Of a stretch of 64,000 nt of DNA, positions 3,916-33,596 are shown one piece after another (the first letter of the stretch is position 1; each line of letters opens with the position of its first letter). The notes under the pieces are model-generated. The model did no database searches. It was given only the letters and a program-made list of their open reading frames with translations, and was not told where the DNA came from. Origin of the DNA: Candidatus Bathyarchaeum sp. (lineage in GTDB: Archaea > Thermoproteota > Bathyarchaeia > Bathyarchaeales > Bathyarchaeaceae); the NCBI GenBank assembly GCA_026014495.1, contig JAOZIF010000136.1, positions 1 through 64,000 on the forward strand, written 5' to 3'. The translations under genes and the position numbers were made by a program.

Positions 3916-3978
3916 CAGCCAAGCATATTAGGAGACTAATAGAGGTACATTGTTGAAAACAGTCTTTTTTATGAAAAA
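3916..3978 (-). repeat. Dispersed palindromic repeat, copy 1
   Basis: Reverse complement TTTTCATAAAAAAGACTGTTTTCAACAATGTACCTCTATTAGTCTCCTAATATGCTTGGCTG; last 27 bp identical to copy 7, 26 bp core identical to copies 3 and 6. Confidence 0.9.
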
Positions 3979-4019
3979 CTTAAGCAACAACAAATCACGT
4001 TACTTACAGGTGTGCTTGC

Positions 4020-4355: not shown

Positions 4356-4397
4356 AAACAAACTACAGTAAACTTAGAGAATTAAAACTATCTCAAA

Positions 4398-4448
4398 CAT
4401 ATATTCCCCCATAACAGAGCATTGTTGAAACACGTTTTTAGTGAAAAA
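4398..4448 (-). repeat. Dispersed palindromic repeat, copy 2 (degenerate)
   Basis: TAACAGAGCATTGTTGAAACACGTTTTTAGTGAAAAA aligns to copy 1 (TAATAGAGGTACATTGTTGAAAACAGTCTTTTTTATGAAAAA) in the same orientation. Confidence 0.6.
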
Positions 4449-4584
4449 CCAAACAAAAAGCCTGTTTTACCTAAATTATTGGACAATACGAAGAGCCTAT
4501 AACCGCCATCAGCTCCTCAAATAACCGAAAGAAATAAAGAAGAACCACTTACTATTTGCTGAAGAGTAAAGAGAATGTGATTAC

Positions 4585-5685: not shown

Positions 5686-5699
5686 CAGGAACACAAAGC

Positions 5700-6326: not shown

Positions 6327-6340
6327 GTATCAATGACTTT

Positions 6341-7234: not shown

Positions 7235-7359
7235 AACCTCTTGTAGAACAAGAATGGCTTTTATCTTTTACCCGAATATCTCAATAAACCATACAAATAA
7301 TCCGTTTGTAGCATGCTGGCAGTTGCATTCCATTTGTCTAGCCAAGACTATCTAATGTG

Positions 7360-8148
7360 CTACGATTTGGTAATGTGCCTTACGTATACTACTGCAGAAA
7401 TGGCTGAAATCCACGCCGCCACATTCTGGCACAAAACATATCTTAACACGATGTCACTCTGAGTTAATGACTGTGCACTATTTGAGACAAATCCTCCAAA
7501 GATGTTTCCAAAAGCTGGGGCTATAGAATCTAAGCTACTAGCAATAGGAACCAATGCATTACCGAGTCCCTCCATAACTCCTTGTAGTGGCGAAGTTGTG
7601 CTGTATAATGCAGTAGCAAAATCGGTGAACAGTTTTGGATAAATTAATACCGACACTAGGATAGCTGACAGCAAAAAAATCGTTAAGACAGTTAATGTGC
7701 TTTCAAGGGCAGTTCTACTGAAACTGAGTTGATGTTGTTTAGTTGAGCCTTCGCTAGAAAGAGTTGCGGTGATTTTGGTGAAAACTTTTTTGACTGTTCC
7801 AAACGTGTTTTGTGTGAGTGTTTTACGCTTTTTTCTTCCTCTTGCACGCCTTACCTGACTTTTTGATGCCTTAGACGGAGCTTTTACACGTGGTCTAATG
7901 GCTACATATTTTGTAAGGTATAACCAGCTTAAGACTAAGACAGCTATCACTGCCAAAGGAAGAATATGAAACAATGTACTGGCGTACAACTGGTTTGCAG
8001 AAACTTGTGTTAGTCCTAAGCCTGCAAAAAAAGAGACAATGAAATATTCGGAAACAAATGCTAGAGCAAAAAACGACCCTATTGTTAACAGTCCCTTTTG
8101 GGACGTCCATTTGAACATTGAACCATCGTTTTGTCCTTTAGATTCCAC
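7360..8148 (-). CDS. Hypothetical membrane protein
   Basis: 262-aa ORF with several TM helices and a basic loop (RRARGRKKRK); no family recognised. Confidence 0.7.
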   Translation of the reverse strand: MESKGQNDGSMFKWTSQKGLLTIGSFFALAFVSEYFIVSFFAGLGLTQVSANQLYASTLFHILPLAVIAVLVLSWLYLTKYVAIRPRVKAPSKASKSQVRRARGRKKRKTLTQNTFGTVKKVFTKITATLSSEGSTKQHQLSFSRTALESTLTVLTIFLLSAILVSVLIYPKLFTDFATALYSTTSPLQGVMEGLGNALVPIASSLDSIAPAFGNIFGGFVSNSAQSLTQSDIVLRYVLCQNVAAWISAISAVVYVRHITKS

Positions 8149-8549
8149 TGATACTTTCCCTCACGATATTGTCTTAAACACTTGAACCATTTTGGGTGTG
8201 TATTACTTAAGATAATGGCCTTCTTATTTAATTTTGACTCAACTTCATTCATAATACACTCCCTTTCATGCCTCTAAAAACACATGCTATGTCCTTGAAA
8301 TAGACAACATTTGCTCTATGCCCGACAGCCAGCATTTTACCATCAGCCGTTTTTATGTGTAACTTGTAACTGCCTTATGTGAATCATTTCATGTTCTTCT
8401 GTGTCATGGATGATGTGTAATACAAACATGAATGCAAAGTATAAATTACGCCTCCGTAACATTTTAAACAACTGTGAAGCATAAGCTAGCTTTGCTTTAG
8501 ATGCGGTTGATGGAAACTCCTATAACCGCAAATCAAAAGGAGACAATGC

Positions 8550-9524
8550 ATGCCAAAAGCCTCTAAAAAGGGATTGCTTAAGCTGTACAAGGACCATAAC
8601 GTGCAGCTTCTTATTAGCAAGTTTGTTAGCGGAGAGCTTGACGCACTGAATCCAACTTTTGACCCAAAGCAGGGTTTTAGATATCCAATTGTGGATAACC
8701 TAGTTGGGGACTCTAGCACCGAAGACTTTTTGCAGAGTCTCTCTGATGGTGGTGTTCTAGAGAGAAAGCTTTACGACAAAATTGTCTATTGTCCCTCATG
8801 TAATTCAGCGAACGTTTCGATTCATTATACTTGCCCCCACTGCAAGTCGTTTGACGTTAAAAAGAGCGCCTTGATTGAACACATAAAATGTGGATACATC
8901 GACACTGAAGACCACTTTCAAAAAGAAGGCAAACTAATCTGTCCTAAATGTAACAAACCTTTACTCGCTCCTGATGTGGACCATCACAAAGCAGGAGTAT
9001 GGTGCACCTGTAACCAATGTTCAAAGAGCTTTGACATTCCAGTTCCAGCACATTTTTGTCGAAAATGCGAAGAAAACTTCACTTTCGACGAAGCAATCTA
9101 CAAAGACGTTTACTCCTACACTTTGACCCCAGAAGCGGCAAAAGAGGCAACGGTAGGTTGGATTATGATTGCTCCCATTATGGAATTTTTGGGAGATAAG
9201 GGATTCGAAATCGAAAGTCCAGGTTTCTTGGACGGAAAATCTGGAACGCGCCACATGTTTGATTTAATTGCGGTTTCTTCTAAAAAGAAGAAAACAACTG
9301 CGATTGACTTAGCAACATCTAATGACGGTGTTGTATCTGAACAGTCAGTGATTTCTATGTTCGCTAAGGTTTTCGACGCTAATCCAGACCAAGCTTGTCT
9401 TGTTGTGATTCCAAAAATGACTGAAAGTGGCAAAAAATTGGCAGCACTCTACAAGATTGATTTGATTGAAGGTAAAGATCAGAATGCTGCAATAGATGCC
9501 TTGAAGAGTTGTGTATCACAATAA
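8550..9524 (+). CDS. TackOD1-like multi-zinc-ribbon protein with C-terminal restriction-endonuclease-like domain
   Basis: wHTH-like N-terminus, then CPSC, CPHC, H..CG, CPKC, C..C, CRKC; C-terminus G.SGTRHMFD..A...IDL resembles Mrr_cat-like folds without the ExK motif. Confidence 0.7.
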   Translation: MPKASKKGLLKLYKDHNVQLLISKFVSGELDALNPTFDPKQGFRYPIVDNLVGDSSTEDFLQSLSDGGVLERKLYDKIVYCPSCNSANVSIHYTCPHCKSFDVKKSALIEHIKCGYIDTEDHFQKEGKLICPKCNKPLLAPDVDHHKAGVWCTCNQCSKSFDIPVPAHFCRKCEENFTFDEAIYKDVYSYTLTPEAAKEATVGWIMIAPIMEFLGDKGFEIESPGFLDGKSGTRHMFDLIAVSSKKKKTTAIDLATSNDGVVSEQSVISMFAKVFDANPDQACLVVIPKMTESGKKLAALYKIDLIEGKDQNAAIDALKSCVSQ

Positions 9525-9525
9525 C

Positions 9526-9945
9526 TTAATTTCCAGAATAGACTGCTATGTTTCCACGTTCTGTTACAACTTTGATTGTGTAACTTTCTGCTGGTAAAGA
9601 TATGTCTTCTGACGTGTATGTTTTTGTTTCTGCAGAATTCACAAAGACGCTTACGTCGTACTGTTGATGGTCTTTTTCGGTTATTACCCACAATGAAACC
9701 AGATGCACTGTTAGCCCCCCGTTGTTTTCGAAGGTAAATTCAGACTCTTTCTTGACGCTCTCAACGTTGGTGATGTTGATGTTTTCTTTCATTTTTTCCC
9801 AATCCACTTGGGTCATCTCATAATTCCACAAAACAATATCCGAAACGATAGCCAAAATAATCACTAGACTGAGGGCAACAACAATCACGTTGCTGACACC
9901 GCGTTTGTCACGTTTAAATCGGCGCCATGTAATAGTCCACAACAA
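9526..9945 (-). CDS. Type IV pilin-like protein (class III signal peptide)
   Basis: RRFKRDKRG|VSNVIVVALSLVIILAIV processing site followed by a hydrophobic helix. Confidence 0.8.
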   Translation of the reverse strand: MLWTITWRRFKRDKRGVSNVIVVALSLVIILAIVSDIVLWNYEMTQVDWEKMKENINITNVESVKKESEFTFENNGGLTVHLVSLWVITEKDHQQYDVSVFVNSAETKTYTSEDISLPAESYTIKVVTERGNIAVYSGN

Positions 9946-10318
9946 TTGTTCCCCTCTCTGTTACAACTTTAATTTCGTATGCCGAGTCTGCTTTCCATTT
10001 GTACTTTACGTTTAACCATCCATGTTCCCCTTGTTCTAACTCAAGAGTTGTAATCGATTGCCTTGTGCGATTCACATATACAGAAGATATTTCGATTGGA
10101 ACCTTGCCTACATTACGAACATACAATGAAACCTGATTTTTTGAGTTAAACCAAACATCTTCGACAATAAGGCGTTCACCCATATTATCGTGTAGCCCAT
10201 CAGTGATAACATATGTAGCGCCAACAGCAATTGACATACCCGCCACTGCGATTACAGTCAGTAAGAGACTGCTTAGCACTGGGGTTATTCCCCTCCTGTT
10301 CCGCAATAGCTTTCTCAC
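9914..10318 (-). CDS. Type IV pilin (class III signal peptide)
   Basis: MRKLLRNRRG|ITPVLSSLLLTVIAVA; C-terminal YVRNVG...IKVVTERG typical of archaeal pilins. Confidence 0.85.
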   Translation of the reverse strand: MRKLLRNRRGITPVLSSLLLTVIAVAGMSIAVGATYVITDGLHDNMGERLIVEDVWFNSKNQVSLYVRNVGKVPIEISSVYVNRTRQSITTLELEQGEHGWLNVKYKWKADSAYEIKVVTERGTIVVDYYMAPI

Positions 10319-17481: not shown

Positions 17482-18570
17482 GTGGAATGTGCTGTGTCTA
17501 AGAAGCTTACTTACTCTGAGGCGGGCGTGGACAGGAAAACAAGAGCAAAATCTAAAGAAGCGCTCTCGATGTTGAAGAAAACATACACTTTAGGCAAGTT
17601 TGGTAAGGTTGTTCAGCTTCCGTACGGTAACATCTTTCTTGCGGGTGACCGTTACTTGGACCTTGTCATTGAGGGTGTTGGCACCAAGGTTCTTCTTGCC
17701 CAGTTAGCAGACAAATACGACACAATTGGGGTAGATGGGGTTGCCATGGCAGTTAATGATGTGATACGGTCAGGTGCTACGCCGTTGGCTTTGGTTGACA
17801 ATTTTCATGCTCACGTTTCTGACCCAGATTTGGTTAGGGAGTGGCTAAAGGGCATAGTAAAGGGTGCAGAAGAATCCGATTGTCCAGTTCCAGGAGGCGA
17901 AATCGGCGATGTTGCAGCCATAATAAAGGGGTTAACAGTGGGGAAGGGCTTTGATTTGATTGTTGCCAGCGTAGGCGATGTTCTAGAGGAGGACATTATC
18001 ACTGGAACAACAATAAAAGAGGGCGATGTTGTTGTGGGAATGAGAAGCTCAGGCGTTCACAGCAACGGAATATCCTTGGTCAGAAAAGTTCTTTTCAAAA
18101 CGTGGGGCGGCAAATATGAACCGTTTGATGTCCCAGACGGCTTTGACAGAGAAGTTGTCTTTGAGGCGCTAGAACCTACAAAAATTTATGTCAAGTCATT
18201 CCTGAACACCACAAAACAGGTCAACGTGAAAGGTGCAATTCACATTACAGGAGACGCATACGTCAAGTTTGACAGGTTCATGAAACACTCCACGGGAATA
18301 GGGTTTGAATTTACGAATTTTAAGCCGCAACCAATTTTTGAGTTGATTCAGCGGACAGCTCCTGAGATTGGAGGTGAAATAACAGATGAAGAGATGCTTA
18401 AAACCTTCAACATGGGCTGGGGCTTTGCTGTGCTAGTAGACAAAAACGATGCAGATGAGGCAATTTCTGTCCTTGAGAAAAGTGGAGTAGAAGCGGAACG
18501 TATCGGAAAGGTTACGGGCTCAGGAAAAATTGTTGCTCACTATAAAGATAAAAAACTGGAACTACGGTAA
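17482..18570 (+). CDS. purM: Phosphoribosylformylglycinamidine cyclo-ligase (AIR synthetase)
   Basis: TYSEAGVD, GVGTK, IGVDGVAMAVND, GGE, SSGVHSNG, LEPTKIY, HITG, TFNMG.GF. Confidence 0.95.
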   Translation: MECAVSKKLTYSEAGVDRKTRAKSKEALSMLKKTYTLGKFGKVVQLPYGNIFLAGDRYLDLVIEGVGTKVLLAQLADKYDTIGVDGVAMAVNDVIRSGATPLALVDNFHAHVSDPDLVREWLKGIVKGAEESDCPVPGGEIGDVAAIIKGLTVGKGFDLIVASVGDVLEEDIITGTTIKEGDVVVGMRSSGVHSNGISLVRKVLFKTWGGKYEPFDVPDGFDREVVFEALEPTKIYVKSFLNTTKQVNVKGAIHITGDAYVKFDRFMKHSTGIGFEFTNFKPQPIFELIQRTAPEIGGEITDEEMLKTFNMGWGFAVLVDKNDADEAISVLEKSGVEAERIGKVTGSGKIVAHYKDKKLELR

Positions 18571-18686: not shown

Positions 18687-18964
18687 ATGTAGAAGGGGTA
18701 AAGCAAGGGTGGGACAGACTTTGGAAAGTGATCATGCTCGGTGACGACATGAAGGTTTTTTCATTTTTCCCTACTTTAACTTTCCAAAGTCCAACCAAAA
18801 AAAAACACAGACAATTGATACATACAACCATCTTTTAACAAACCTACAGACCTGTAATACATAGCCTGAAAAACGGGAACATCAAAACTCACACAGAGTT
18901 TAACTTTTCATATCAATTTTGTTTCGACAACATTTAAATTTTGATTTTTTCACTAACAATCACA

Positions 18965-19213
18965 ATGTATCGCGCAAAAATCGAAGTCAGTCTCAAACAG
19001 GGGCACTCCGACCCTGAGGGAGAAATGACGGCTCAATCCTTAAAGGAATTAAAGTTTTCCGCCAAAAAAGTCAACGTAAGCAAGGTCTACATAGTAGTTT
19101 TTGAGGCAGAATCCAAACAGAAAGCCGAGGAGGCGGTGGAGGGGATGTGTCGAAAACTTCTTGCTAACCCAACAAAGGATAACTACAGTTACGTAATAGA
19201 GGAAGAAAAATGA
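18965..19213 (+). CDS. purS: FGAM synthase subunit PurS
   Basis: YRAKIEVSLKQGHSDPEG...MCRKLLANP..DNY; TTTAAA box ~27 nt upstream supports ATG 18965. Confidence 0.95.
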   Translation: MYRAKIEVSLKQGHSDPEGEMTAQSLKELKFSAKKVNVSKVYIVVFEAESKQKAEEAVEGMCRKLLANPTKDNYSYVIEEEK

Positions 19214-21585
19214 GTCGTTACGTCAAAAAAGACGTGCCCTTTGAACTGGTAGAAATAGATTTGAAAACCGCTGATGATGGGCAGCTTATCGAAATCAGTG
19301 GTGAGTTGGGAATAGGCTTAAACTTAACTGAAATGAAGCTTGTTCAAAGCTATTTTTCTAGAAAGAAACGTAATCCTACAGATGTGGAGCTTCAGACTAT
19401 TGGTCAAACGTGGTCTGAGCATTGTTACCATAAAACCTTCAAGGGCGACATATCAACGCCAAATGAGCAAATCAGAAGCCTATTCAAAACATACATTGCA
19501 AGAGCAACCGAAGAACTTGACCCCGACTGGTGTATTTCAGTTTTTGAGGACAATGCGGGCATTATTGATTTTGAGAAAAACTATGCCATAGCTGCAAAGG
19601 TTGAAACGCATAATCATCCGTCTGCGATTGAGCCGTTTGGTGGAGCAGCAACGGGAACAGGTGGAGTGATACGTGATATACTTGCGGTGTGGGCTGATCC
19701 GATAGCATGCACGGATGTGCTGTGTTTTGGTCCTCTGGATTATGATTACAGTAAGCTTCCTGCTGGAACAAAGCATCCAAAATATGTTTACAGTGGCGTG
19801 GTTGCTGGGATTGGCAGCTACGGAAACAACATGGGAATCCCAACAGTGAATGGTGCCATAAATTTTGATGAAAGCTATGTTGGCAACGTGGTTGTTTATT
19901 GTGGCTGTGTTGGGCTTCTTCCTAAAGACAAGTTTGTAAAAGATACAAGAGCAGGAGATGTTGCTCTTCTTGTTGGCGGAGAAACAGGAAGAGATGGAAT
20001 CCACGGCGTAACCTTTGCATCTGCAGAATTAACCAAAGAGTCCGAGGAAATCTCCAGACCTGCAGTTCAAATCGCAAATCCCATAGAAGAAGAACGAGTC
20101 AAACGAGCAATTAACAGGCTACGGGACGCGGGTTTAGGCTCAGCCATAACCGACATCGGTGGAGGCGGAATCTCGTGCGGAACTGGAGAGATGGCTGAGC
20201 GCTCAAATCTTGGAATTCACGTTTACCTCGAAAAGATTCCGCTAAAGTATCAGGGCTTGGCGCCATGGGAAATATATGTCTCTGAATCGCAGGAAAGGAT
20301 GCTGCTGTCTGTTTCAGAGAAAAATCTAAAGAAAGCTTTGGAAGTTTTTGAAACCGAAAACGTGAAGGCAAGCCCCATAGGCAAATTCACAACTGACGGA
20401 ATCCTAAAAGTAACATACAAAGGACAAACCGTTGCAGAACTGGACATCGACTTTGTTTTTAATCCACCAAAATTTGTGGGCACCACAGACTGGCAGCCCC
20501 CAAAACTGGATGAACCAACGTTTCCAGAGCCAGCAGACTTGACCAAAGAACTGTGGGGGATGCTGTCTATGCCAAACATCGCAAGCAAAGAATCGGTCAT
20601 ACGAACCTACGACCACGAAGTTAAAGGCAACACAGTGCTAAAGCCGCTGCAAAGCAAGTATGGTGGACCAAACGATGCGGCAGTTCTAAAACCGCTACCT
20701 GATTCATGGAAAGGCGTAGTTATTTCGTCTGGACTAAACACTAACTACGGAAAAATTGACCCATACTGGATGGCAGCCTCAAGCATAGATGAGGCAATAC
20801 GAAACAATGTGGCGGTTGGTGGACGAAGAATAGCGCTGCTTGATAACTTCACGTGGGGTAATCCTCAGAAGCCTGACAGGCTAGGTTCACTAGTAAGCGC
20901 ATGTAAAGCCTGTTACGATTTTGCCAAGGGCTTTCAGACACCTTTCATTTCAGGAAAAGACAGCCTGTATAACGAATCGCCCATAGGACCAGTAACACCC
21001 ACGTTGCTAATTACTGCAATCGGGATAACCCCTGACGTAAGAAAAACGGTTTCTATGGAACTTAAACAGCCCAAAAACAGCATCTACATGGTCGGAAAAA
21101 CTTACCCTGAGCTGGGAGGCAGCCAGTACTACCAAAACAAGGGAATCCTAGGAAACACGGTTCCAAAAGTGAGAATGGCTCAGGCAAAAAACACTATGGA
21201 CCAGATTACAAAATCCATCGACAACGGGTACCTCAGGGCATGTCACGACCTGTCCGAGGGGGGCTTGGCGGTTGCGGCTGCGGAGATGGCGTTTAGTAGC
21301 GGATATGGGATAGAGTTGGACCTAAACAAGGTGCCCAGAACCGAGCAAATGTCCAGAAACGATTTTGTGTTATTCTCGGAGTCAAACAGCAGATTTTTAG
21401 TTGAAGTAACACAAAAACGCAAAACAGAATTCGAGGCACTAATGAAAGGTGTGTACTGCGCTGAAATTGGCACAGTAACAAACGATGAAGTTATGTCGGT
21501 TACTGGCTTGGACGGCAAACAGGTACTCCATGCTGACATACCAGAGTTGAGGAGACGCTGGAAAAGCGCCCTAGGAGGAAAATAA
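19210..21585 (+). CDS. purL: FGAM synthase subunit PurL
   Basis: WSEHCYHK, KVETHNHPSAIEPFGGAATG, SESQERM, SGKDSLYN, HDLSEGG. Confidence 0.97.
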   Translation: MSRYVKKDVPFELVEIDLKTADDGQLIEISGELGIGLNLTEMKLVQSYFSRKKRNPTDVELQTIGQTWSEHCYHKTFKGDISTPNEQIRSLFKTYIARATEELDPDWCISVFEDNAGIIDFEKNYAIAAKVETHNHPSAIEPFGGAATGTGGVIRDILAVWADPIACTDVLCFGPLDYDYSKLPAGTKHPKYVYSGVVAGIGSYGNNMGIPTVNGAINFDESYVGNVVVYCGCVGLLPKDKFVKDTRAGDVALLVGGETGRDGIHGVTFASAELTKESEEISRPAVQIANPIEEERVKRAINRLRDAGLGSAITDIGGGGISCGTGEMAERSNLGIHVYLEKIPLKYQGLAPWEIYVSESQERMLLSVSEKNLKKALEVFETENVKASPIGKFTTDGILKVTYKGQTVAELDIDFVFNPPKFVGTTDWQPPKLDEPTFPEPADLTKELWGMLSMPNIASKESVIRTYDHEVKGNTVLKPLQSKYGGPNDAAVLKPLPDSWKGVVISSGLNTNYGKIDPYWMAASSIDEAIRNNVAVGGRRIALLDNFTWGNPQKPDRLGSLVSACKACYDFAKGFQTPFISGKDSLYNESPIGPVTPTLLITAIGITPDVRKTVSMELKQPKNSIYMVGKTYPELGGSQYYQNKGILGNTVPKVRMAQAKNTMDQITKSIDNGYLRACHDLSEGGLAVAAAEMAFSSGYGIELDLNKVPRTEQMSRNDFVLFSESNSRFLVEVTQKRKTEFEALMKGVYCAEIGTVTNDEVMSVTGLDGKQVLHADIPELRRRWKSALGGK

Positions 21586-21588: not shown

Positions 21589-22407
21589 ATGAAGACTCAG
21601 GATGTTCGTGTTCTTGTTATGCGGGTTGGTGGAACAAACTGTGACGCCGAAACCCAACGAGCCTTCACTGAATTGGGCGCACAGGCACAGGTGCTTCATT
21701 TCAACGAAGTAATAAAAAATCACAGCATTCTAGACTATAACGCGCTTGTGTTTCCGGGCGGATTCTCGTACGGCGACTACGTTAGGGCTGGAGCAATCTG
21801 GGCAACAGGAACCCTAACTAAACTACGTAAAGACCTCAAAGAGTTCGTTGAACAAGAACGACCAATTCTGGGCATCTGCAACGGCTTCCAAGTATTAGTC
21901 GAAGCAGGGCTGCTACCTGCCTTTAATGGAATAAGCGAATACCCAAAAGCAACTTTGGCAACTAACATTCCAATTGGTTACCGCTGCAAATGGGTTTACC
22001 TTAAGCACGAGAACTCTGGAAACTGCATATTCACCAAAAACATACCCAAAAACAAGGTCATGCATATACCCGTAGCTCACGGCGAGGGACGTTTCTTGTT
22101 TGCAAAAGAAAACGAAAAACGTTACCTGCAAAAACTCTACGACAACGACCAACTAGTCTTTAGATACTGCACAAAAGACGGTGACTACCCAAACGGAGAA
22201 TTTCCAGTCAACCCCAACGGAGCATTCCACGACATAGCAGGCATCTGCAACCCACAGGGAACAGTTTTTGGCTTAATGCCACACCCAGAAAGAGCCTTTT
22301 ACGGCTGGCAGTTGCCTGACTGGGCAAAAACCGAGCAAGCGCCAACGTTTGGAGACGGAAAACTGGTCTTCGAATCCATGATTGATTATTTGAAGAAACG
22401 GTTCTAG
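21589..22407 (+). CDS. purQ: FGAM synthase glutaminase subunit PurQ
   Basis: GTNCD, PGGFSYGD, GICNGFQ, HGEGRF, GLMPHPER. Confidence 0.97.
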   Translation: MKTQDVRVLVMRVGGTNCDAETQRAFTELGAQAQVLHFNEVIKNHSILDYNALVFPGGFSYGDYVRAGAIWATGTLTKLRKDLKEFVEQERPILGICNGFQVLVEAGLLPAFNGISEYPKATLATNIPIGYRCKWVYLKHENSGNCIFTKNIPKNKVMHIPVAHGEGRFLFAKENEKRYLQKLYDNDQLVFRYCTKDGDYPNGEFPVNPNGAFHDIAGICNPQGTVFGLMPHPERAFYGWQLPDWAKTEQAPTFGDGKLVFESMIDYLKKRF

Positions 22408-23306
22408 ATGGCTTTCAGGTCAGCTAATCTGGGTAGCCCTGTTCTGGCGCCAATCTTTGAGACACAGCGGGACGCAACAAAGTTTCCCAGCTTTCCACAA
22501 TCAAACAAGTCCATTCCTTTGGCTAACCCGTAAATGAATCCTGCATCAAAAGCGTCTCCTGCACCTGTTGTGTCCACAACATCAACCTTGTATGCTTCAA
22601 TTGTGTGACTCTCTTTTCCGTCAGTAACATAGCAGCCCCACTTGCCACGTTTAACAGCAACCAACTTTGCGCCCAAATCCATGAACGTCAACGCCCCTTC
22701 CTTGTAATCTTGTCCTGTAAGCAACTTAACTTCCAGTTCGTTAGGAAGAACAACAAAGCTTCGTTTTATTATCGGCTTTAGCTCATCTAAACCCTTTTTT
22801 GCATATATTGCTCCGGGGTCAAAACAGACTTTCACGTTCTGAAGCCTAGTTATGAGCTGCTTTTGGGCATCAAAGGGCTTTTGTGCAACAAACGACGACA
22901 AATGCAAAAACTTTGCGCCAGAAAAATACTCCAAATCAACTTCGTCAAAGTCTACCTGATTGTTGACTCCAGCATCAACGTAGAGTGCCCGATCGCCGTT
23001 CTGGTCGATGTATCCCATGACCTTGCCGCTTCTGCCCATTTTTGTAACTGTTATTCCGTTGACGTCAACGCCCTCTTCTCTCAGTTCGTCTAAGAGGAAT
23101 TTTCCTTCCATGTCAGAGGCAACCTTTCCAACAAACCCTGTCTTGAGTCCGAGCCTAGCCAGACCCACGATTGTGTTTGCTGCTGAACCTCCGCCAGAAA
23201 TCTTAAGGTCAGTGACAAAACCTTCCTCTTCCCTTTTGGCTATCATGTTAACCTTGAAGAGCTTGTCCAAGTTGAGGGCACCAAAACCTACGGCATCAAA
23301 ATCCAT
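22404..23306 (-). CDS. PfkB/ribokinase-family kinase (EhaT-like)
   Basis: GGSAANT...LARLG, PNELE, VDTTGAGDAFDAGF; ATG overlaps the stop of the Ftr-like gene (TGATG). Confidence 0.9.
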   Translation of the reverse strand: MDFDAVGFGALNLDKLFKVNMIAKREEEGFVTDLKISGGGSAANTIVGLARLGLKTGFVGKVASDMEGKFLLDELREEGVDVNGITVTKMGRSGKVMGYIDQNGDRALYVDAGVNNQVDFDEVDLEYFSGAKFLHLSSFVAQKPFDAQKQLITRLQNVKVCFDPGAIYAKKGLDELKPIIKRSFVVLPNELEVKLLTGQDYKEGALTFMDLGAKLVAVKRGKWGCYVTDGKESHTIEAYKVDVVDTTGAGDAFDAGFIYGLAKGMDLFDCGKLGNFVASRCVSKIGARTGLPRLADLKAI

Positions 23307-24208
23307 CAAAACAGCCCCCGCAAACCTATCTTGTGTTTACCAAGTTTTCCGCCATAATTTCCTGCAGAAACACGGACAACGCCATCAACAGCGCTTGCAG
23401 TTTGGATGCCCACCTTCATTGCTTGTTTAACTGCTTTCATTGATGTGCCATTGATTACAATTTCAGGAATATACTTTACGCCCAACGGAACCTTAGAGCT
23501 TCTTCCCAACTTAGTCTTTAGGCTATGACAGTACGGATGGTTCGTGGTAGGGCCAATCAACGGAAACCGTGTTTCAGGCTTTGAACCCGCAGAGCAAACA
23601 TCAAACGGAGTTACCACACCCTCAACTTGGTGTATGGCATCTAGCGCCTTTTTTCCAGCTTCCATAACTGCCCGTTTGGTTTTGCACATAAACCAGAAAT
23701 TGGCGCCCATAACTCCCCTTGCGTAACCCAGCTCGTTTTCTATCAAAAAATTAGAGACCATCAAAGGAACAACAATCAACTCTCTTCCGTAACGCTCTTC
23801 TGTCCACTCGTAGCCATCTCCACAGTGACCAACCCGCTCCATCATCCCAATCTTGCCCTCAGACTTAGGAAGCGCATCAAAAACAGCAGTGAACGGCTTC
23901 ACCAAAATGTCTTGCCGTAGCCTAAACGACAACTCTGCCTCAAACTTTTTCAGTGAACTTTCTAGGGGCTTGTTTTCGTCGATGCCGCCCCAAAACTGCA
24001 AAATTACGCCTTCTCGTTTGTCTGGCGTTTCTTGTTTGTTTAGGTATTTTTCGATGCCGCCTTCTGTTCTGCCGATTACTATTGCAGGCGTGGCTGTTGC
24101 CTGTTGTGCAGCTTTACATAAAACTTCAATATGGCCTGCGGTGACTATGACTCTGGAATATAATCCGTCGAAAGCTTCCGCGTAGGTATCTTCGATTTCG
24201 GCTTTCAT
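23306..24208 (-). CDS. Formylmethanofuran:tetrahydromethanopterin formyltransferase-like protein (divergent Ftr paralogue, EhaS-like)
   Basis: EIEDTYAEAF, TPDKREG, GDGY, GANF, AGSK, TTN.PYC, PEIVING, SAGNYGGKLG align with Ftr along the whole length. Confidence 0.88.
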   Translation of the reverse strand: MKAEIEDTYAEAFDGLYSRVIVTAGHIEVLCKAAQQATATPAIVIGRTEGGIEKYLNKQETPDKREGVILQFWGGIDENKPLESSLKKFEAELSFRLRQDILVKPFTAVFDALPKSEGKIGMMERVGHCGDGYEWTEERYGRELIVVPLMVSNFLIENELGYARGVMGANFWFMCKTKRAVMEAGKKALDAIHQVEGVVTPFDVCSAGSKPETRFPLIGPTTNHPYCHSLKTKLGRSSKVPLGVKYIPEIVINGTSMKAVKQAMKVGIQTASAVDGVVRVSAGNYGGKLGKHKIGLRGLF

Positions 24209-24226
24209 AATGTCCCCCTTCATATG

Positions 24227-25333
24227 TTACCCTAACTTTCCTATAGCCTCTCCCCTAACTGTCTTTCTGAAAACACTGCTCTGGCTTATCAAACGCTCCA
24301 AGTTATCAGCGGTTACCTGCTCAACCTGAGGAAAAGCTTCAGCAAATTGTAGTTTCATCTTTTCACACAAAACAGGAACCAAACAATATTTCTCAAGCCC
24401 TAAAGGACTCCAGTCGTTAACCAGATTTAGTGCTCCTTCTTTGCCCTGTCGACTGAAGACTTGCGCAAGAACAGAAGTCACAACAGTATTTCCAGAAAGC
24501 ACAGCAACATTTGACTCCCGCACAGAATAACGGTTCCCATTAAATGAAACCGCCAAGCCCCCATTCTCTTTCACTAGCCTTAATGCCTGAGCATCTGTTA
24601 TGCTGTCGCCCACATACATCACATGGTCAAGACTGCAATCCATCTTTGTAACAATATCCTGTACGGCTCGTGCTTTCTCTGTTCCGCCAACAGGATTAAC
24701 GTCAACAAGCATCCTGCCCGACTCCAACTCTGGCAACTCTTCCCAGAAAATCTCATCCAAGCGTTCAACCGTCGCTTGGTCTCTATCGGAAAAATCGGCA
24801 ACTGAACCAGCATTTTTGGGAATTTCAATCATAGGCAAGGAGGCTATTTCGTTTCCTAGCTCTTTTAGTCTCTTTGTCTCTTGGGCGGATATCTGGTAGT
24901 TATCCAAGTTCAAGCGCGTGCAGTAAGTGTTCTGGAAAGGAAAACCCGTCAACATGCACAGGGCAAAGATGTATTGCTCATAGCTGGTGCTGACAATAAA
25001 CGAGGAAAACATTTCACTGACAAACTTGAGCGTGTCTTTAGCTCCGGGAACCAACAAAACGTTTCTGGCAGAAAAATCTCTTATTTTCGCATCTGTAGCA
25101 CCGTACGCTTTCAGGAAAGGAAGAATCAGCCGCAGCGTATCCCCAGCTTTGTAGCCCTGCTTTTTAACGATGTCCGCTAAAACATCATCATACTTGCTCA
25201 CAAGAGCAAAAATTTTGTCTCCCTTATGCACAAAATGCTCTGCCAACTCAAAGGCATTATCATTTTTGGAGATTGGCCCCTCACAGTCTGACACGAAAAC
25301 TCGCGGACTTTTTTGGGACACTTCTGCTGGCAT
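24227..25333 (-). CDS. HAD-superfamily hydrolase, EhaR-like
   Basis: HAD motifs DCEGP, STS, K, GDSITD; N-terminus DCEGPISKNDNAFELAEHF...YDD.LAD....GYKAGDTL.LILPFL matches the family usually labelled EhaR (recall). ATG overlaps purD stop. Confidence 0.8.
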   Translation of the reverse strand: MPAEVSQKSPRVFVSDCEGPISKNDNAFELAEHFVHKGDKIFALVSKYDDVLADIVKKQGYKAGDTLRLILPFLKAYGATDAKIRDFSARNVLLVPGAKDTLKFVSEMFSSFIVSTSYEQYIFALCMLTGFPFQNTYCTRLNLDNYQISAQETKRLKELGNEIASLPMIEIPKNAGSVADFSDRDQATVERLDEIFWEELPELESGRMLVDVNPVGGTEKARAVQDIVTKMDCSLDHVMYVGDSITDAQALRLVKENGGLAVSFNGNRYSVRESNVAVLSGNTVVTSVLAQVFSRQGKEGALNLVNDWSPLGLEKYCLVPVLCEKMKLQFAEAFPQVEQVTADNLERLISQSSVFRKTVRGEAIGKLG

Positions 25334-26742
25334 CAGCGCCTCCTCAATTCTTCCATATGCCTGATGCTCTGGTTAATGTGACTCTTGACCGCAATGTCGC
25401 TTCTGTTCCACAGTGCCCCACCCTTGATTGCGGCTATGCCCTCTAGAGACTGTTCTCGTGCATCTTGAATAGTGTCGCCTATGCCCACAACTGCAACAGC
25501 CCGAGAGCCAAGTGCAAAGGTTTCGCCTTCTCTAAGCTCCATGGAACCCGGATACACCCTGACAGCTTCAGAATCATTTTTTACAAGCTTTTGGGTGCCA
25601 CTCAAATCAACAGCACCACCCACTTCAGCCTTGTTTACTTTGTCAGCAAACTTTGTAGAATAGCCACCATAGTCTGGAGGAACCTTATACGTCACAACCG
25701 TTGCCTTCGATTTGAAGTTAACTTTGCGCAGGTTTGCGTCTATCATATTGTAGCAAACTTCAACAAAATCGTCCTTCAAAACAGGCAAAAGCGTCATTAT
25801 CTCTGGGTCTCCAGGTCTGCTGTTGACCTCCAAAATTTTGGGACCCTTACTTGTATGAATAAAAGCTGCATAGAACGGAACTCCCCTCAACCCAGGGTTA
25901 CTTCCTTTTCCTTTCATTTCCACGAAAACCTTGTTAACAAGTTCGATTTCTTTCTCTCTGTCCCTTTTGGTCATGAAAGGCAATATGTCTCCAGCGTCTT
26001 TGTATGCGCCCATCCCCCCAGTGTTAGGACCTTCATCGCCGTCAAAGGCACGTTTGTAGTCTCGTGTTTCTGGAAGCGCAACCAAACGTTTTCCATCACA
26101 AAACGTCTGAAAACTTGATTCCTCGCCCACAACCTTCTCCTCAATTAACACTGGACCATGCTCATAGTTGGAGATGAAATGCTCAAAAACTTCTTCTGGC
26201 GTATTGAAGTGGTCACCCCAAACGCCGACTCCTTTTCCTGCAGTTGCCTTGTCAGGCTTAACAGCTACTTGGTTATCTAATTCTTTGAGCCAACCATACA
26301 CGCTCTTTTTGACCTGCATTGTGCTGCTGTAGTCTTTGGGGTCAAAAACTTTGAAGCGGGGATTAACTTCTGGCGCAACTTTTTGGAAGAGTTCGCGTTG
26401 AGCTATTTTGCTGCCTTCAATCGCATATTTTTGAGTTGGACAAATCATTGGAATTTTTGTTTTTTTCTCAACAACGTCTCTGACGCCTGCGATGATTGGC
26501 TTTTCTGGACCAACAATGCCAAAGTCTATGTTGTCGCGATGTTTTTTTGCGAATTTTGCGATTTCATCCAAGTTGAAGTCTGAGATAATTGTGTGTTTTT
26601 CGGCGTGTTTGCTGTTAAACGGGTTTTTTTGTTTGTCAACAACATAGAATTTTGGGGCATAATCTTCGCTGTGACAAAAAGCGTCTATGATTGCGGCTGC
26701 TCTTGAGCCGTACGAAATTACTAGGATGCCAACTTTTTCCAT
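25333..26742 (-). CDS. purD: Phosphoribosylamine-glycine ligase (GAR synthetase)
   Basis: GPEKP, EGSK, VKPD...GKGV, IEE...GEE, DYKRAFDGDEGPNTGGMG, EVNSRPGDPE. Confidence 0.95.
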   Translation of the reverse strand: MEKVGILVISYGSRAAAIIDAFCHSEDYAPKFYVVDKQKNPFNSKHAEKHTIISDFNLDEIAKFAKKHRDNIDFGIVGPEKPIIAGVRDVVEKKTKIPMICPTQKYAIEGSKIAQRELFQKVAPEVNPRFKVFDPKDYSSTMQVKKSVYGWLKELDNQVAVKPDKATAGKGVGVWGDHFNTPEEVFEHFISNYEHGPVLIEEKVVGEESSFQTFCDGKRLVALPETRDYKRAFDGDEGPNTGGMGAYKDAGDILPFMTKRDREKEIELVNKVFVEMKGKGSNPGLRGVPFYAAFIHTSKGPKILEVNSRPGDPEIMTLLPVLKDDFVEVCYNMIDANLRKVNFKSKATVVTYKVPPDYGGYSTKFADKVNKAEVGGAVDLSGTQKLVKNDSEAVRVYPGSMELREGETFALGSRAVAVVGIGDTIQDAREQSLEGIAAIKGGALWNRSDIAVKSHINQSIRHMEELRRR

Positions 26743-26768
26743 TAAGGCTCACCATAACATATGATTGG

Positions 26769-28256
26769 TTATTTTACGGAAGATTCGTATATTCTTCCTT
26801 TTTCGCTGTAACCGTTCTCGAATCTTTCTTTCATTTCGTCAGCCAACTTTTGGGCTAACGGGGTTGGATACTTGCCTGTAATACAACCCAGACACAGGTT
26901 TTGTTTGTCTAAGCCTGTTGCTTTAACTAGGCCATCAACGGACTGGTAGTTCACGGCGTCTGCGCCCACGATTTCGGCGATTTCTTCTGCGTCGTGTTGT
27001 GAGCCTATTAGTTCACGGTAGGTTGCCATGTCTACGCCGTAGAAGCAGGGTCCGATGATTCTGGGGAATGTGATGAAGAGGTATACTTTTTTTGCGCCCA
27101 TTTTGCGTAGTTTGGTGACTACGACTTTGGTTGTGTCGCCTCTGACTATGCTGTCGTCTACTACTGCGACGTTTTTTCCTGCGAGTTTGTGGTCTACGAT
27201 GTTGATTTTTCGGTCTATTGTGTTGTATCTTTGGTCTGAGAGTAGAATAAAGGCTCGTTCTGCGACGTATCTGTGGCGTCTTGAGGCTCTTTCCCATCTT
27301 ATGCCTGTTAATTCGTGGTATCCGTAGGCTGCGTCGTTTCCTGTTTCGGGCATGGACATTATAATGTCCACTTTGCTTGTGGTTTCAGGGTATTCCCATG
27401 CAAAGTTTCTGCCAAACTCTTCTCTAACTTCATACACGTATCTGTTTCCTAGTCTTGAGTCTGGTCGGGCAAAGTATGCGAATTCGAATGCGCATAGTGC
27501 GTGTCTTTCTCCAGGGCATAGTTGTTTTCTTTCGAAGCCGTCTTTTTTGGCGACTACAAGTTCGCCTGGGTTTACTTCAAAGTTGAAGTCAAAACTGTTT
27601 ATGTCAAGGCCCACGGTTTCTGATGATACGGCGCAGGTTGTTCCGTTTTTGCTGCAGCCGCAGCATAGGGGCCTTATTCCTTGTGGGTCTCTGAAGGCAA
27701 AGAGTTCTCCTTTTTCTGTCATTCCAGCGACGGAGAAGGCGCCTTCGATTTCTTTCATGCACCGTTTTACTGAGGAGGCTAGGTCGCCGTCTTTTGTTTG
27801 TCTTAGGAGTTTTCTGGAGATTAGTTCTGCGTCGTAGTTGAATCGAAAGTTTGGGGTTTCTTCTTGTATTTCTTTTATTATGTCAGGCGTGTTGACGACG
27901 TTGCCGTTGAAGGCGATTGCTATTTGTTTTTCTCCTCGTTTTTCCATGATTGGTTGGGTGCTTTTTACTAGTGACTCGTAGTCTGTTCCGCCAGATGTTG
28001 AGTATCTGACGTGTCCCAATCCTACAGATCCAGGAAGTTCTGTTAGCCATTTTTGGATTTCTTCCTTTTTTACTTTGGGAACAAGGTCCAAGCCTTTTTG
28101 GCTGTGGAATGTTCCGTCGTATGTTAAGAATCCGTGGGATTGGTGGCCGCGGTGGTTTTGGGATCGCAGTCCCCAGTATATGTAGGGGAAGACTGGTTTG
28201 TTTGTGAAGTCTTGTGCTGCGAAAACCCCGCATGCCTCTTTTAACTGTTCGAGCAT
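26769..28256 (-). CDS. purF: Amidophosphoribosyltransferase
   Basis: EACGVF (Ntn Cys), QNHRG, GHVRYST, FNGN, RDPQGIRPL, FAYFARPDS, VVDDSIVRGDT, CLGCITGKYP. Confidence 0.97.
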   Translation of the reverse strand: MLEQLKEACGVFAAQDFTNKPVFPYIYWGLRSQNHRGHQSHGFLTYDGTFHSQKGLDLVPKVKKEEIQKWLTELPGSVGLGHVRYSTSGGTDYESLVKSTQPIMEKRGEKQIAIAFNGNVVNTPDIIKEIQEETPNFRFNYDAELISRKLLRQTKDGDLASSVKRCMKEIEGAFSVAGMTEKGELFAFRDPQGIRPLCCGCSKNGTTCAVSSETVGLDINSFDFNFEVNPGELVVAKKDGFERKQLCPGERHALCAFEFAYFARPDSRLGNRYVYEVREEFGRNFAWEYPETTSKVDIIMSMPETGNDAAYGYHELTGIRWERASRRHRYVAERAFILLSDQRYNTIDRKINIVDHKLAGKNVAVVDDSIVRGDTTKVVVTKLRKMGAKKVYLFITFPRIIGPCFYGVDMATYRELIGSQHDAEEIAEIVGADAVNYQSVDGLVKATGLDKQNLCLGCITGKYPTPLAQKLADEMKERFENGYSEKGRIYESSVK

Positions 28257-30233: not shown

Positions 30234-33200
30234 CTATTTCTCGGCTAATCGTTCAACCCGTGCCTTATACAAGGCGCTTGTGGCTTGATAAATGTCAAGC
30301 ATTTCCTTTTTATTTAATCCTAAAATATCACAGAAGACTATTTCATCTAGTGCTTGCCTCTCCTCAAGTAAAACTTCCTCAAAAAGAGGCTTAACTTCGT
30401 GACCTGCTATCTTATCTAATGCTTGTTCCAACTTTTTAATTATTAAAGGGTTCTTCTTTTCAATTTTTTTCATATCAAGTGTTGGTACTTCTCTCAACTC
30501 GTAAATTTTAATTTCGTTAGATATTGTTTTGTCTCTATTTTCTATGTATCTACCACAAAATTCAGTAAGCAAAGCAGTAAGGGTTGAATTAAGCACAGCG
30601 CAATGAGCCTTTGCATACTTCTTATTAAAAGGGCGTATCTCGTCCAAACAATCTGTAGCATAGAAACCCAACTTGTTATAGAATATGATGTGTCTTCCCC
30701 AATAGATACTTGGAGAAAGAATCAAACTTTTCGGTCTGCTATCCAAATCATACCAAGGCTTTCTCGAAGAGCAGGTTGGATGCTCATGATAACCAGCATA
30801 TTTTGTCGCCCTCCAAAAATGTTCCTTAGTTTCACCATACTCGATATATTCTAAGACTTTTTTTCCGCCATTTTTAAGCGCACTCTTTTTTTCTTTGCAT
30901 ATAAGCAAGTATCCATCTTTTTCAAGATTAGATATGCTTTTGTGGGGTCTTATTTTATTTAAGACAGGCTTGACATACTCCCATTCTATCCAAAAACGTT
31001 CTTTTTTGGTGCCTTTATCTATAAGAACTAAGAACTCGGGGGTTTCTTTTGTCTTGAAAAATCGATTTGGAAAACAAAAGAAATGGTTTGCGCCAGTTTT
31101 GATTGCATATTTAACATCAGCTACTTTTCGTAGAGGAATCACAAAATCTTTTGCTTGTTCCAATAGCTTAAAGAAAGCTGTGGGAGCTACCAAATATTTT
31201 CCCCATTTCGGATCGTTTCTAAGATCACATTGTCTAACAAGAACTATCTTAAAATCTTCATTTTCATAAAACCAGACTTTTCGATCTAAAAATTCAGTTT
31301 CTTTAAAATCAAATAACTTCTCAGCACATTCAATACTATTTACGAATTTATCCACTTCGCTCCAACGATAAATTTCCTGAACCATATCACGTTCGTCAGA
31401 AATTGCTGGGACCAATTTAGAGATAGGAGATTTAAGTTGAACAAATTTAACGAGATTATCATTTCTTTCTTTTTTCTGGTTGCACATTTCAAGAATTGAA
31501 ACACATGGAAGCATTTGAGCGTCAGGGAACCATTGTTCTTCATTTGATTCAATAATTGCTACAAGTTTACAATGGTCAAGGAAAAAATTCTTTAATGCTT
31601 TTCCATATTTCACATCAAGCCACGATCTCAATGTCACAAATCCAAGCCTACATTTGTCTTCCAAAAATTTTAAACTGTGAATGAAAAAGTAGGCGTAAAT
31701 ACTTGCCCTCAATGATAGATTAATATGTGGGTAGTCTTTTTGGATGGTCGCTAGTAGTGTTTCTTCCTTATAATTATGACCAAACACTTCTTCCAACATT
31801 TCTTCTTGACGTGTATATGGTGGGTTTCCGACAACTGCACACATTAGGGGCAACTTTTTCTCTATTACTGATTTATCTAACTTGGGAACTTGTACTACTG
31901 TTTCTTTTTTGGGGATACCATAAGCCTCCAAAGTATGCTGTACTCCAATATCTACTTGTGATCTTGGAAAAACCTCAAAGAAATCATTGTACACTATGTT
32001 TGGATAGTTCTTTTCTACCGTCAAATCTCTTATTGCGAGATTTATTGTAGAAAGGTGAGCGGGAAACTTAGCGATATCGACTCCCCAAAGCCGTCGGAGT
32101 AAATCTTTGTGAGATATTTTGCCTTCCAAATACTTGAGTCGGTAATATGACCTTACAAGAAATGTTCCTGAACCACAGGCAGGATCGAGTACTATATCTT
32201 GTTTATTTTTTACACAAAATCCTATAATCAAATCAACAATATCCGATCGAGTGAAATATTGACCTAAAGTATGGCGCTCTGTTGTTGGAATTATTTTCTC
32301 GAAAACTTTTCCGATAATATCGTAGCCAATGTTGGAATAATCAAGTGTTTGTAAGTAGCCAATTGTTCTAATTAATTCAGATATAGTATCACTGGGGAGA
32401 GGAATTTTATCAACAAAGTTCGTTTGAAAAACTGTTTCATAATTTCCAGATTTCTCTATACCTATGTTAAAAAATGTTTGAAGGAGCGTATAGAATGTGT
32501 CTGAAGTCAATCCTTTTGGTAAAGTAAGTTCGGGTAAAGCATATTTGACTTTAAGAACATTATAAAATAGCAATTTATTCACGAAAATATACGTATATTG
32601 TTTTGCTAAAATTATACAATATTCTTCAAGTTTTGTTTTGTTTCCTTTTGGATCGTCCCAACCATTATCCGCTAACCACACTTCGAATTTCAGTCGATAG
32701 TCTGAGTCCTCAATATATCTTGAAACAAGCTCGTTTACTAAATGCGTTGTGCTGACAATACCGTTGATGTAGTTATGCAGAACTTCCACTATGCTCTCAT
32801 CTATGGGTTTTGGAGGTTCCCCTTCAAGAAATTTTGAAAACCATAAAAGAAATCTTTTGAAGGAGCCTCGAATTTCATCGGTTTTTCTGAAATATTCTTG
32901 CAGTTCTTTTACATATGTGATAGCGAACTCGGCAATTCTTTTGAGTGTTACAGCATCCCATAATACAAGAAAGTTCACATTATGAGTTGCAAAATATCTT
33001 ATGTGTGGACGATAATTTTCTACATATCCTATTGTTTGCTCAATAACTTCAGGATTGTAAGGTGCATCCATTTCCTCTGGACGTTTTACTTCAATTAGAA
33101 AAAAACAGTTGTTCTTATCATCTAAGAAAAGTATATCGGCACGTTTCCTTTCCTTTACCATCTCAACTTTTACTTTTCCAAGTGGCAAATTATTTTCTTT

Positions 33201-33266
33201 TATTATTTGCCCTATCCACTCTTTCAGGTCACTCGCATAAGTTGGTTCAGTAGGCTCCCCACTCAA
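30234..33266 (-). CDS. Type IIG restriction-modification enzyme (REase-N6-methyltransferase-TRD fusion)
   Basis: N-terminal RADILF...FLIEVKRP nuclease motif; LGQYFT, DPACGSGTFL (motif I), GNPPY (motif IV), C-terminal TRD. Start placed at TTG 33266 behind AGGGA. Confidence 0.9.
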   Translation of the reverse strand: MSGEPTEPTYASDLKEWIGQIIKENNLPLGKVKVEMVKERKRADILFLDDKNNCFFLIEVKRPEEMDAPYNPEVIEQTIGYVENYRPHIRYFATHNVNFLVLWDAVTLKRIAEFAITYVKELQEYFRKTDEIRGSFKRFLLWFSKFLEGEPPKPIDESIVEVLHNYINGIVSTTHLVNELVSRYIEDSDYRLKFEVWLADNGWDDPKGNKTKLEEYCIILAKQYTYIFVNKLLFYNVLKVKYALPELTLPKGLTSDTFYTLLQTFFNIGIEKSGNYETVFQTNFVDKIPLPSDTISELIRTIGYLQTLDYSNIGYDIIGKVFEKIIPTTERHTLGQYFTRSDIVDLIIGFCVKNKQDIVLDPACGSGTFLVRSYYRLKYLEGKISHKDLLRRLWGVDIAKFPAHLSTINLAIRDLTVEKNYPNIVYNDFFEVFPRSQVDIGVQHTLEAYGIPKKETVVQVPKLDKSVIEKKLPLMCAVVGNPPYTRQEEMLEEVFGHNYKEETLLATIQKDYPHINLSLRASIYAYFFIHSLKFLEDKCRLGFVTLRSWLDVKYGKALKNFFLDHCKLVAIIESNEEQWFPDAQMLPCVSILEMCNQKKERNDNLVKFVQLKSPISKLVPAISDERDMVQEIYRWSEVDKFVNSIECAEKLFDFKETEFLDRKVWFYENEDFKIVLVRQCDLRNDPKWGKYLVAPTAFFKLLEQAKDFVIPLRKVADVKYAIKTGANHFFCFPNRFFKTKETPEFLVLIDKGTKKERFWIEWEYVKPVLNKIRPHKSISNLEKDGYLLICKEKKSALKNGGKKVLEYIEYGETKEHFWRATKYAGYHEHPTCSSRKPWYDLDSRPKSLILSPSIYWGRHIIFYNKLGFYATDCLDEIRPFNKKYAKAHCAVLNSTLTALLTEFCGRYIENRDKTISNEIKIYELREVPTLDMKKIEKKNPLIIKKLEQALDKIAGHEVKPLFEEVLLEERQALDEIVFCDILGLNKKEMLDIYQATSALYKARVERLAEK

Positions 33267-33596
33267 CGCAATCCCTAGTCTATTAATTTGTTTATAATTT
33301 ATAAGCTTACAAAAAATTGGATTTTTTTTAAAAAATTCACCATCCAAAAGAAGCATGGTGGTGTGGCATTTACGCCAAAAGACAATTTTCAGTCGATTCC
33401 CCCGCAAGAAGTTTTCATATTTCCTGTCCTCCTACGTGTTCCTAATATTGCAAAGAACGGGAATGTCAAGATAATATTCTCTTCAGAAAACAGTTGGGGA
33501 ATGAAAGAAATCTTGATTCCATTTGAGATTGTTAAGTTAAGTCCTATTGTTTCTAAAAAATATTTACTCGTTTTTTAGCTTTGTTAACAGCCTTTT

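Follow-up and report, generated by a model that had tools for sequence, protein, structure and literature searches.

An Ftr paralogue encoded behind purD in Bathyarchaeia as a predicted enzyme of glycinamide ribonucleotide formylation in archaea without PurN and PurT

The third step of purine biosynthesis, the formylation of glycinamide ribonucleotide (GAR), is performed by PurN, which uses 10-formyl-tetrahydrofolate, or by PurT, an ATP-grasp enzyme using free formate that replaces PurN in folate-free archaea. In Archaeoglobi, Methanobacteriales and Methanopyrus kandleri the GAR formyltransferase was reported as unidentified, and Methanothermobacter thermautotrophicus is a purine prototroph (Brown et al. 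2011, PMC3261824). The gap was reported again for Archaeoglobales and Methanobacteriales, with the anaerobic methanotrophic lineage ANME-1 added, in a study that also described an uncharacterised clade of Ftr paralogues, Ftr2, in ANME-1, ANME-2a/b, Archaeoglobales, M. kandleri and Methanothermobacter marburgensis and left this clade and the gap unconnected (Chadwick 2022, PMC9012536). Ftr itself transfers the formyl group between formyl-methanofuran (formyl-MFR) and tetrahydromethanopterin (H4MPT). An Ftr-like protein, EhaS, and the ribokinase-like EhaT are encoded in Methanothermobacter by genes co-transcribed with ehaA-Q of the hydrogenase Eha, and their role is not known (Kaster 2011, PMC3087415). 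A trio of genes similar to ehaR, ehaS and ehaT was found directly behind purF and purD in Candidatus Bathyarchaeum sp., at positions 22404-28256 of a 64,000-nucleotide stretch, hereafter the window, comprising positions 1 to 64,000 of contig JAOZIF010000136.1 (assembly GCA_026014495.1). It is likely that this Ftr2 module performs GAR formylation in archaea that have neither PurN nor PurT. The assignment of step 3 to the module is a strong prediction from comparative genomics, following from the position in the operon, the exchange of the module for purN or purT behind purD, distributions that complement each other in two phyla, its loss together with purD and its retention in genomes without methanofuran synthesis. 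No publication linking Ftr2 or the trio genes to GAR formylation was found in a literature search that left subscription journals largely outside.

The five genes of the operon are tightly packed on the minus strand, as evidenced by open reading frames and Pfam and NCBIfam matches. The first gene, purF (26769..28256), encodes the amidophosphoribosyltransferase of step 1 (TIGR01134, 328 bits; GATase_7). It is followed by purD (25333..26742), coding for GAR synthetase of step 2 with GARS_N, GARS_A and GARS_C domains; this enzyme is of the archaeal type, with a TIGR00877 score of 247.5 bits that lies below the cut-off. The trio comprises an EhaR-like protein of the HAD superfamily (24227..25333; 368 amino acids, weak HAD-IIB/IB Pfam matches), the EhaS-type Ftr paralogue Ftr2 with FTR and FTR_C domains (23306..24223, or starting at an alternative ATG at 24208), and an EhaT-type, ribokinase-like PfkB kinase (22404..23306 or 23309; PfkB 177 bits; ribokinase TIGR02152 160 bits, below the cut-off of 299.65). 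The purD/HAD junction reads GCGC-TGATG-CCA, with an A common to the stop and start codons, and the Ftr2/PfkB junction reads TTT-TGATG-GAT, which makes the ATG at 23306, and not the TTG at 23309, the likely start of the kinase gene and indicates that the kinase is translationally coupled to Ftr2. The HAD and Ftr2 genes are spaced by 3 nt, or by 18 nt if Ftr2 starts at 24208.

Converging on this operon from the plus strand are purM (17482-18570; step 5; TIGR00878 266 bits) and three genes for step 4, namely purS (18941-19213; PurS), purL (19210-21585; AIRS/AIRS_C/FGAR-AT linker) and purQ (21589-22407; GATase_5), and the ends of the two arrays meet at the 3' end of the PfkB gene. The gene content and both TGATG overlaps given in the initial annotation of the window were thus confirmed by domain searches and by direct reading of the sequence. 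The window is contig C175 of the source genome (G000), which is 93.1% complete and consists of 196 contigs. No match to Formyl_trans_N (PF00551), indicative of PurN, was found anywhere in G000, and the best PurT match, of 28 bits, is an unrelated ATP-grasp protein, so that the proposed lack of purN and purT holds for the whole assembled genome. With steps 1, 2, 4 and 5 encoded and PurN and PurT absent, step 3 is the sole early step of the pathway without a recognisable gene. A second, canonical Ftr is encoded on contig C59 (TIGR03119 391.5 bits, above the 292.6 cut-off), and the genome also encodes Mch.

The order of genes around Ftr2 was compared in loci of 80 other Bathyarchaeia species, whose Ftr2 proteins are 66-81% identical, using loci with enough flanking sequence. 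Ftr2 is immediately preceded by the HAD gene in 64 of 75 loci and immediately followed by PfkB in 73 of 77, and purD is found upstream in 60 of 70. This recurrence shows that the arrangement is not due to chance, and linkage to pur genes, far from being unique to one genome, is kept across most of the 80 species.

In sister lineages within Bathyarchaeia the slot directly behind purD is occupied by a known GAR formyltransferase gene: purN in G085, G035, G142, G136, G112, G133, G052, G047 and G030, and purT in G016, G064 and G006. All three solutions coexist within family f14, with Ftr2 in G011 and G033, PurT in G005 and G017, and PurN in G053. The reaction proposed for Ftr2 is similar in outline to that of PurN, the transfer of a pterin-bound formyl group to GAR; PurN, however, has an unrelated fold, employs another C1 carrier and, in its standard form, is not accompanied by a kinase or phosphatase.

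Outside Bathyarchaeia the module was found in other arrangements. A Methanocellales metagenome-assembled genome (MAG) carries the contiguous trio in the order EhaR-PfkB-Ftr2 (L106), and on another contig a 388-aa protein is followed by Ftr2 and PfkB. Convergent Ftr2-PfkB pairs are present on DPANN-like contigs (L124, 9001-10952; L125, 8849-10777; L091, 8001-11002), on which many proteins have no Pfam matches; L091 also carries an EhaR-like gene. In L089 a PRPP (phosphoribosyl pyrophosphate) synthetase gene is found near Ftr2, and L092 and L093 have purB beside it. In the latter two (loci at about 2472-5605 and 3175-6575, respectively) a gene for a 337-aa radical-SAM/HHH protein precedes Ftr2, divergent from purB, and neither EhaR nor PfkB was found on these contigs. 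A 368-aa protein encoded near Ftr2 in L090, equal in length to the EhaR-like protein, is unrelated to EhaR. In three closed genomes of a second phylum (G347, G307 and G329; loci L108, L111 and L112) Ftr2 is about 69% identical, nested within the Bathyarchaeia clade and bordered by short remains of EhaR (its C-terminus) and PfkB (its N-terminus), while full-length, more distant EhaR and PfkB genes are located elsewhere. This looks like a transferred cassette with decayed partner genes.

The relation to Eha put forward in the initial annotation probably holds, supported by indirect evidence. In addition to the published descriptions of EhaS and EhaT and of Ftr2 in M. marburgensis, relatives of the 368-aa HAD protein bear the JGI name "energy-converting hydrogenase A subunit R", and an Atlas cluster named EhaR, mostly from Methanobacteriota, matches its structural model with a TM score of 0.90. 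The same three families, contiguous in the window, stand in Methanothermobacter at the end of the ehaA-T operon; there they sit in a hydrogenase operon, here behind purF-purD. It could be supposed from the co-transcription with ehaA-Q (Kaster 2011, PMC3087415) that EhaR, EhaS and EhaT are true subunits or maturation factors of the hydrogenase. This is extremely improbable given that in the window and in about 80 Bathyarchaeia species the genes belong to a purine operon without adjoining hydrogenase genes, that they occur alone or in pairs in Methanocellales, Hydrothermarchaeota-like and other genomes, and that their distribution follows purD, PurN and PurT. The neighbours of the trio in the window are purF, purD, purQLSM and the gene for methionine adenosyltransferase, none being a hydrogenase gene, and no eha genes are present on the Ftr2-PfkB contigs L124 and L125. 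Further along the window, between the S-adenosylmethionine synthetase gene and the next genes, lies a 1057-aa open reading frame (30234-33407, minus strand) with a G+C content of about 35%, compared to about 43% around it.

A hidden Markov model (HMM) of Ftr2 was used to screen 301 Bathyarchaeia genomes of at least 85% completeness; 63 chosen genomes were tested for Formyl_trans_N, PurT and purD, and 45 for EhaR. None of the 24 sampled Ftr2 genomes contains a clear PurN or PurT, and the same is true of G000. Two matches were not counted as clear co-occurrence: a 79-bit Formyl_trans_N match in G115, located on another contig, and a 175-bit PurT/PurK-like match in G001. Conversely, all 26 purD-positive genomes without Ftr2 carry a PurN-family or PurT gene, mostly directly behind purD. 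Nine genomes lack purD, and all nine also lack Ftr2, EhaR, PurN and PurT, most of them keeping canonical Ftr. Four other genomes seemed to combine purD with the absence of any transferase, which is explained by a contig end inside Ftr2 (G056), by frameshifts in Ftr2 and likewise in purL and purQ (G249), and by contig ends in or just after EhaR (G147 and G163).

The same pattern was observed in the phylum of the Methanocellales MAG, which we take to be Halobacteriota of GTDB. Among 240 genomes of at least 90% completeness about 86 encode Ftr2, about 108 only canonical Ftr, and 47 no Ftr at all, and 80 of these genomes were tested for PurN, PurT, EhaR and the EhaT-type kinase. Of 42 genomes with Ftr2, one (G517) has PurN and none has PurT, EhaR being present in 39 and the kinase in all 42. 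The 38 genomes with canonical Ftr only show the opposite picture, with PurN in 32, PurT in the six that lack PurN, EhaR in four and the kinase in five. Neither EhaR nor the EhaT-type kinase occurs in any of the 33 genomes of this phylum that have standard PurN (176-205 bits) or PurT. The anticorrelation of the trio with purN and purT that the initial annotation had predicted is therefore borne out in both phyla.

This distribution also bears on another possible acceptor. Step 9, the formylation of AICAR (5-aminoimidazole-4-carboxamide ribonucleotide), likewise requires a source of formyl groups in archaea without folate, and Ftr2 could be thought to act on this or another purine intermediate. 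That is most unlikely: the anticorrelation is with the enzymes of step 3, the gene is placed between purD of step 2 and the converging purQLS of step 4, and G000 already has tandem PurP paralogues (G000:C69:25930-27395, L004 and L005; 170 and 145 bits) that cover formate-dependent AICAR formylation. Duplication of PurP has been flagged as unexplained (Brown et al. 2011, PMC3261824). As for other late-pathway and folate genes of G000, a short stretch of C46 (13143-13328, L006), with a TGA nearby, matches the PurH family model over its initial 62 positions only and may represent a stand-alone IMP (inosine monophosphate) cyclohydrolase-type domain or a fragment; no PurH1 was otherwise seen in this genome. 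A partial formate-tetrahydrofolate ligase (G000:C125:8-1108, L008; 632 bits) is encoded on a contig of 1962 bp and could be either contamination or a genuine folate branch.

Ftr2 belongs to the Ftr family, both lobes being recognised (FTR, PF01913, 145.7 bits; FTR_C, PF02741, 185.3 bits), and aligns end to end with the solved enzymes 1FTR (M. kandleri, also 2FHJ), 1M5H (Archaeoglobus fulgidus) and 1M5S (Methanosarcina barkeri), sharing with them the full-length two-lobe fold and the glutamate of the EIVING motif. It is not a canonical member: it scores 231 bits against TIGR03119, the fhcD/Ftr equivalog, under the 292.6 cut-off, and is 35% identical to the canonical Ftr of G000. In a tree of 60 sequences a branch supported at 96% in the SH-aLRT (Shimodaira-Hasegawa-like approximate likelihood ratio test) separates all 34 Ftr2 candidates from 22 canonical Ftr/FhcD sequences, whose own side has 99%. 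Judged by source names, the Ftr2 clade includes Ca. Methanospirare, Syntropharchaeum, Methanocellales, Hydrothermarchaeota, Altiarchaeota, Aenigmarchaeota and Bathyarchaeia; the first of these is, we assume, an ANME-1 lineage. The scores of the HMM built from the clade are bimodal in whole genomes: Ftr2 reaches about 380-477 bits, canonical Ftr no more than 287 bits.

In both clades at least 95% of the sequences keep E254 of EIVING, presumably the counterpart of the catalytic Glu245 in the M. kandleri enzyme, and about 15 further positions are common to both. The signatures of Ftr2 are C134 in place of an invariant Phe, changing FFGDG to HCGDG, and P225 in place of Ala242; W78, W177, G224, Q76 and C210 are also conserved specifically in Ftr2. 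Ftr2 probably still binds H4MPT.

The formyl donor was addressed with 26 genomes encoding Ftr2 and lacking canonical Ftr. Of these, 25 encode Mch. MfnB, which performs the furan-forming step of methanofuran synthesis, is absent in 16, including the closed genomes G313, G334 and G378, and FwdA is absent in these three and in G515. In G313 Mch is encoded 1.6 kb from Ftr2. Ftr2 thus apparently functions in cells with H4MPT and no methanofuran. Retention of Ftr2 and Mch without methanofuran synthesis or Fwd argues against the normal role of Ftr, and favours N5-formyl-H4MPT over formyl-MFR, the other donor considered in the initial annotation. The distribution also favours the takeover of the methanofuran site of Ftr2 by another primary amine and would fit the analogy drawn there between the aminomethyl group of methanofuran and that of GAR.

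These data make it very unlikely that Ftr2 is an isoenzyme of Ftr acting between formyl-MFR and H4MPT in C1 metabolism, its linkage to purine genes merely co-regulating C1 supply with purine demand. Such a role would agree with the common two-domain fold, the 38-41% region-wide identity to the solved Ftr enzymes and the score above the NF002554 subfamily cut-off (334 bits). However, in the three closed genomes Ftr2 is kept without canonical Ftr, MfnB and FwdA, and methanofuran cannot be its substrate there; where purD is lost, Ftr2 is lost with it while canonical Ftr stays; and the sub-equivalog score and the exchange of the invariant Phe of FFGDG for Cys set it apart.

In the EhaR-like protein motif I is D16-x-E18-G-P, with Glu for the second Asp of the DxD motif, in all 13 sequences compared from two phyla. 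D16, E18, G19, P20, S115-T116-S117, K220 and G242-D243...D247 are invariant in this set, HAD motifs II-IV thus being present, and the protein is presumed to be a phosphatase or phosphotransferase partner. The best PDB match of its AlphaFold2 model (AF2; mean predicted local distance difference test, pLDDT, 93.8) is 1Y8A, the structure of AF1437 from A. fulgidus (Foldseek E 5.5e-19; target-normalised TM 0.92; 25% identity), and the next matches are phosphoserine phosphatases with TM of about 0.45. AF1437, a structural-genomics orphan sharing the EhaR-like fold, derives from a lineage in which both PurN and PurT are reported to be missing.

The EhaT-type kinase scores below every equivalog cut-off and has invariant N12, D14, G39-G40, N44 and D251, keeping the GG dipeptide, the Asn/Asp pair and the Asp of GAGD. 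In ribokinase and adenosine kinase these residues, as we understand it, bind the 2',3'-hydroxyls of ribofuranose and activate the 5'-OH. Since the 5' position of GAR is already phosphorylated, these motifs suit a riboside or ribose substrate rather than GAR.

The comparisons establish gene order, clade identity and the distribution relative to PurN, PurT, purD, Mch, MfnB and FwdA; which molecule accepts the formyl group, which one donates it and what the partner proteins do is inferred. Ftr2 would transfer the formyl group of N5-formyl-H4MPT, made by Mch and the most likely donor, to the amino group of the glycinamide moiety in GAR or in the corresponding riboside, and the formylated product would feed PurSLQ.

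Several points weigh against this assignment. By an estimate from published free energies, nothing obvious would drive the formyl group of N5-formyl-H4MPT onto a primary amine. The DPANN-like Ftr2-PfkB contigs show no pur genes in view and would need another explanation if their hosts make no purines. Ftr2 and PurN occur together in G517, and also in ANME-2a/b (Chadwick 2022, PMC9012536). The Ftr2 and canonical groups were defined by HMM score, and the profiled genomes are related, so that fewer evolutionary events underlie the counts than their size suggests. In the second phylum purD was checked in one of the Ftr2 genomes, G302, and for the others the pathway is taken from the literature to be otherwise complete; membership of Methanobacteriales likewise relies on publications, on names given by JGI and on Atlas clusters, and the tree was built without sequences of that order.

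Finally, EhaR and EhaT occur with PurN-family genes and without Ftr2 in the Bathyarchaeia genomes G027, G002 and G010. In G027 (L098, G027:C17:10000-21000, locus 3353-10066) the operon is purF-purD-PurN-like-EhaR-PfkB-FolD, and the PurN-like gene (330 aa, PF00551 42 bits) stands in the place of Ftr2, with the HAD and kinase genes kept; in G002 and G010 a divergent PurN-like gene lies behind purD and EhaR is located elsewhere. In the second phylum G308, G319, G330, G340 and G348 combine a lower-scoring PurN (149-161 bits) with the EhaT-type kinase, and four of these five keep an adjacent EhaR-EhaT pair. The role of the partners thus does not depend on the Ftr fold and has no clear link to H4MPT.

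The occurrence of the EhaR-EhaT pair with two unrelated transferase folds, and never with standard PurN or PurT, suggests that the pair sets the form of the substrate rather than the donor. For the roles of the two partners the leading, though doubtful, model is a nucleoside detour of phosphatase, formylation and kinase steps, which might operate in many H4MPT-using archaea, with the module as an ancestral link between Wood-Ljungdahl C1 metabolism and purine synthesis. In such a detour the DxE-type HAD protein EhaR would remove the 5'-phosphate of GAR, Ftr2, or a divergent PurN-like enzyme in some lineages, would formylate the riboside, and the EhaT-type kinase would restore the phosphate with ATP, the ATP of this step pulling an otherwise near-equilibrium formyl transfer. 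The net cost would then be one ATP, as with PurT, which fills the same slot in f20 and f15 and is absent from all tested Ftr2 genomes. If true, the detour would explain why "EhaRST" rides on the anaplerotic hydrogenase Eha.

The properties of the partners could also be read in another way. With a ribokinase-like kinase, a phosphatase-like HAD protein, a PRPP synthetase gene near Ftr2 in L089, and EhaR and EhaT kept where a PurN-family gene could formylate, the trio might perform some other purine-linked task, such as the supply of ribose, ribose-phosphate or PRPP or nucleoside salvage, and GAR would be formylated by another enzyme. This is unlikely, as it leaves a formyltransferase-fold protein without a role in spite of its conserved catalytic Glu, and explains neither the clean exclusion of standard PurN and PurT in two phyla nor the occupation of the purN/purT slot behind purD.

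If GAR formylation by the Ftr2 module is true, it would fill the GAR formyltransferase gap of Archaeoglobi, Methanobacteriales and M. kandleri (Brown et al. 2011, PMC3261824) and of ANME-1 (Chadwick 2022, PMC9012536), and would provide a function for the orphan genes EhaR, EhaS and EhaT and for the orphan structure 1Y8A. A textbook reaction would gain a third class of enzyme, of the Ftr fold and dependent on H4MPT. The annotation of thousands of archaeal genomes would be corrected, in which these genes appear as a second "Ftr", a "HAD hydrolase" and a "sugar kinase"; the current annotation would then inflate the inferred C1 catabolism and hide purine prototrophy. In these archaea a direct connection would exist between the H4MPT C1 pool and the synthesis of nucleotides.

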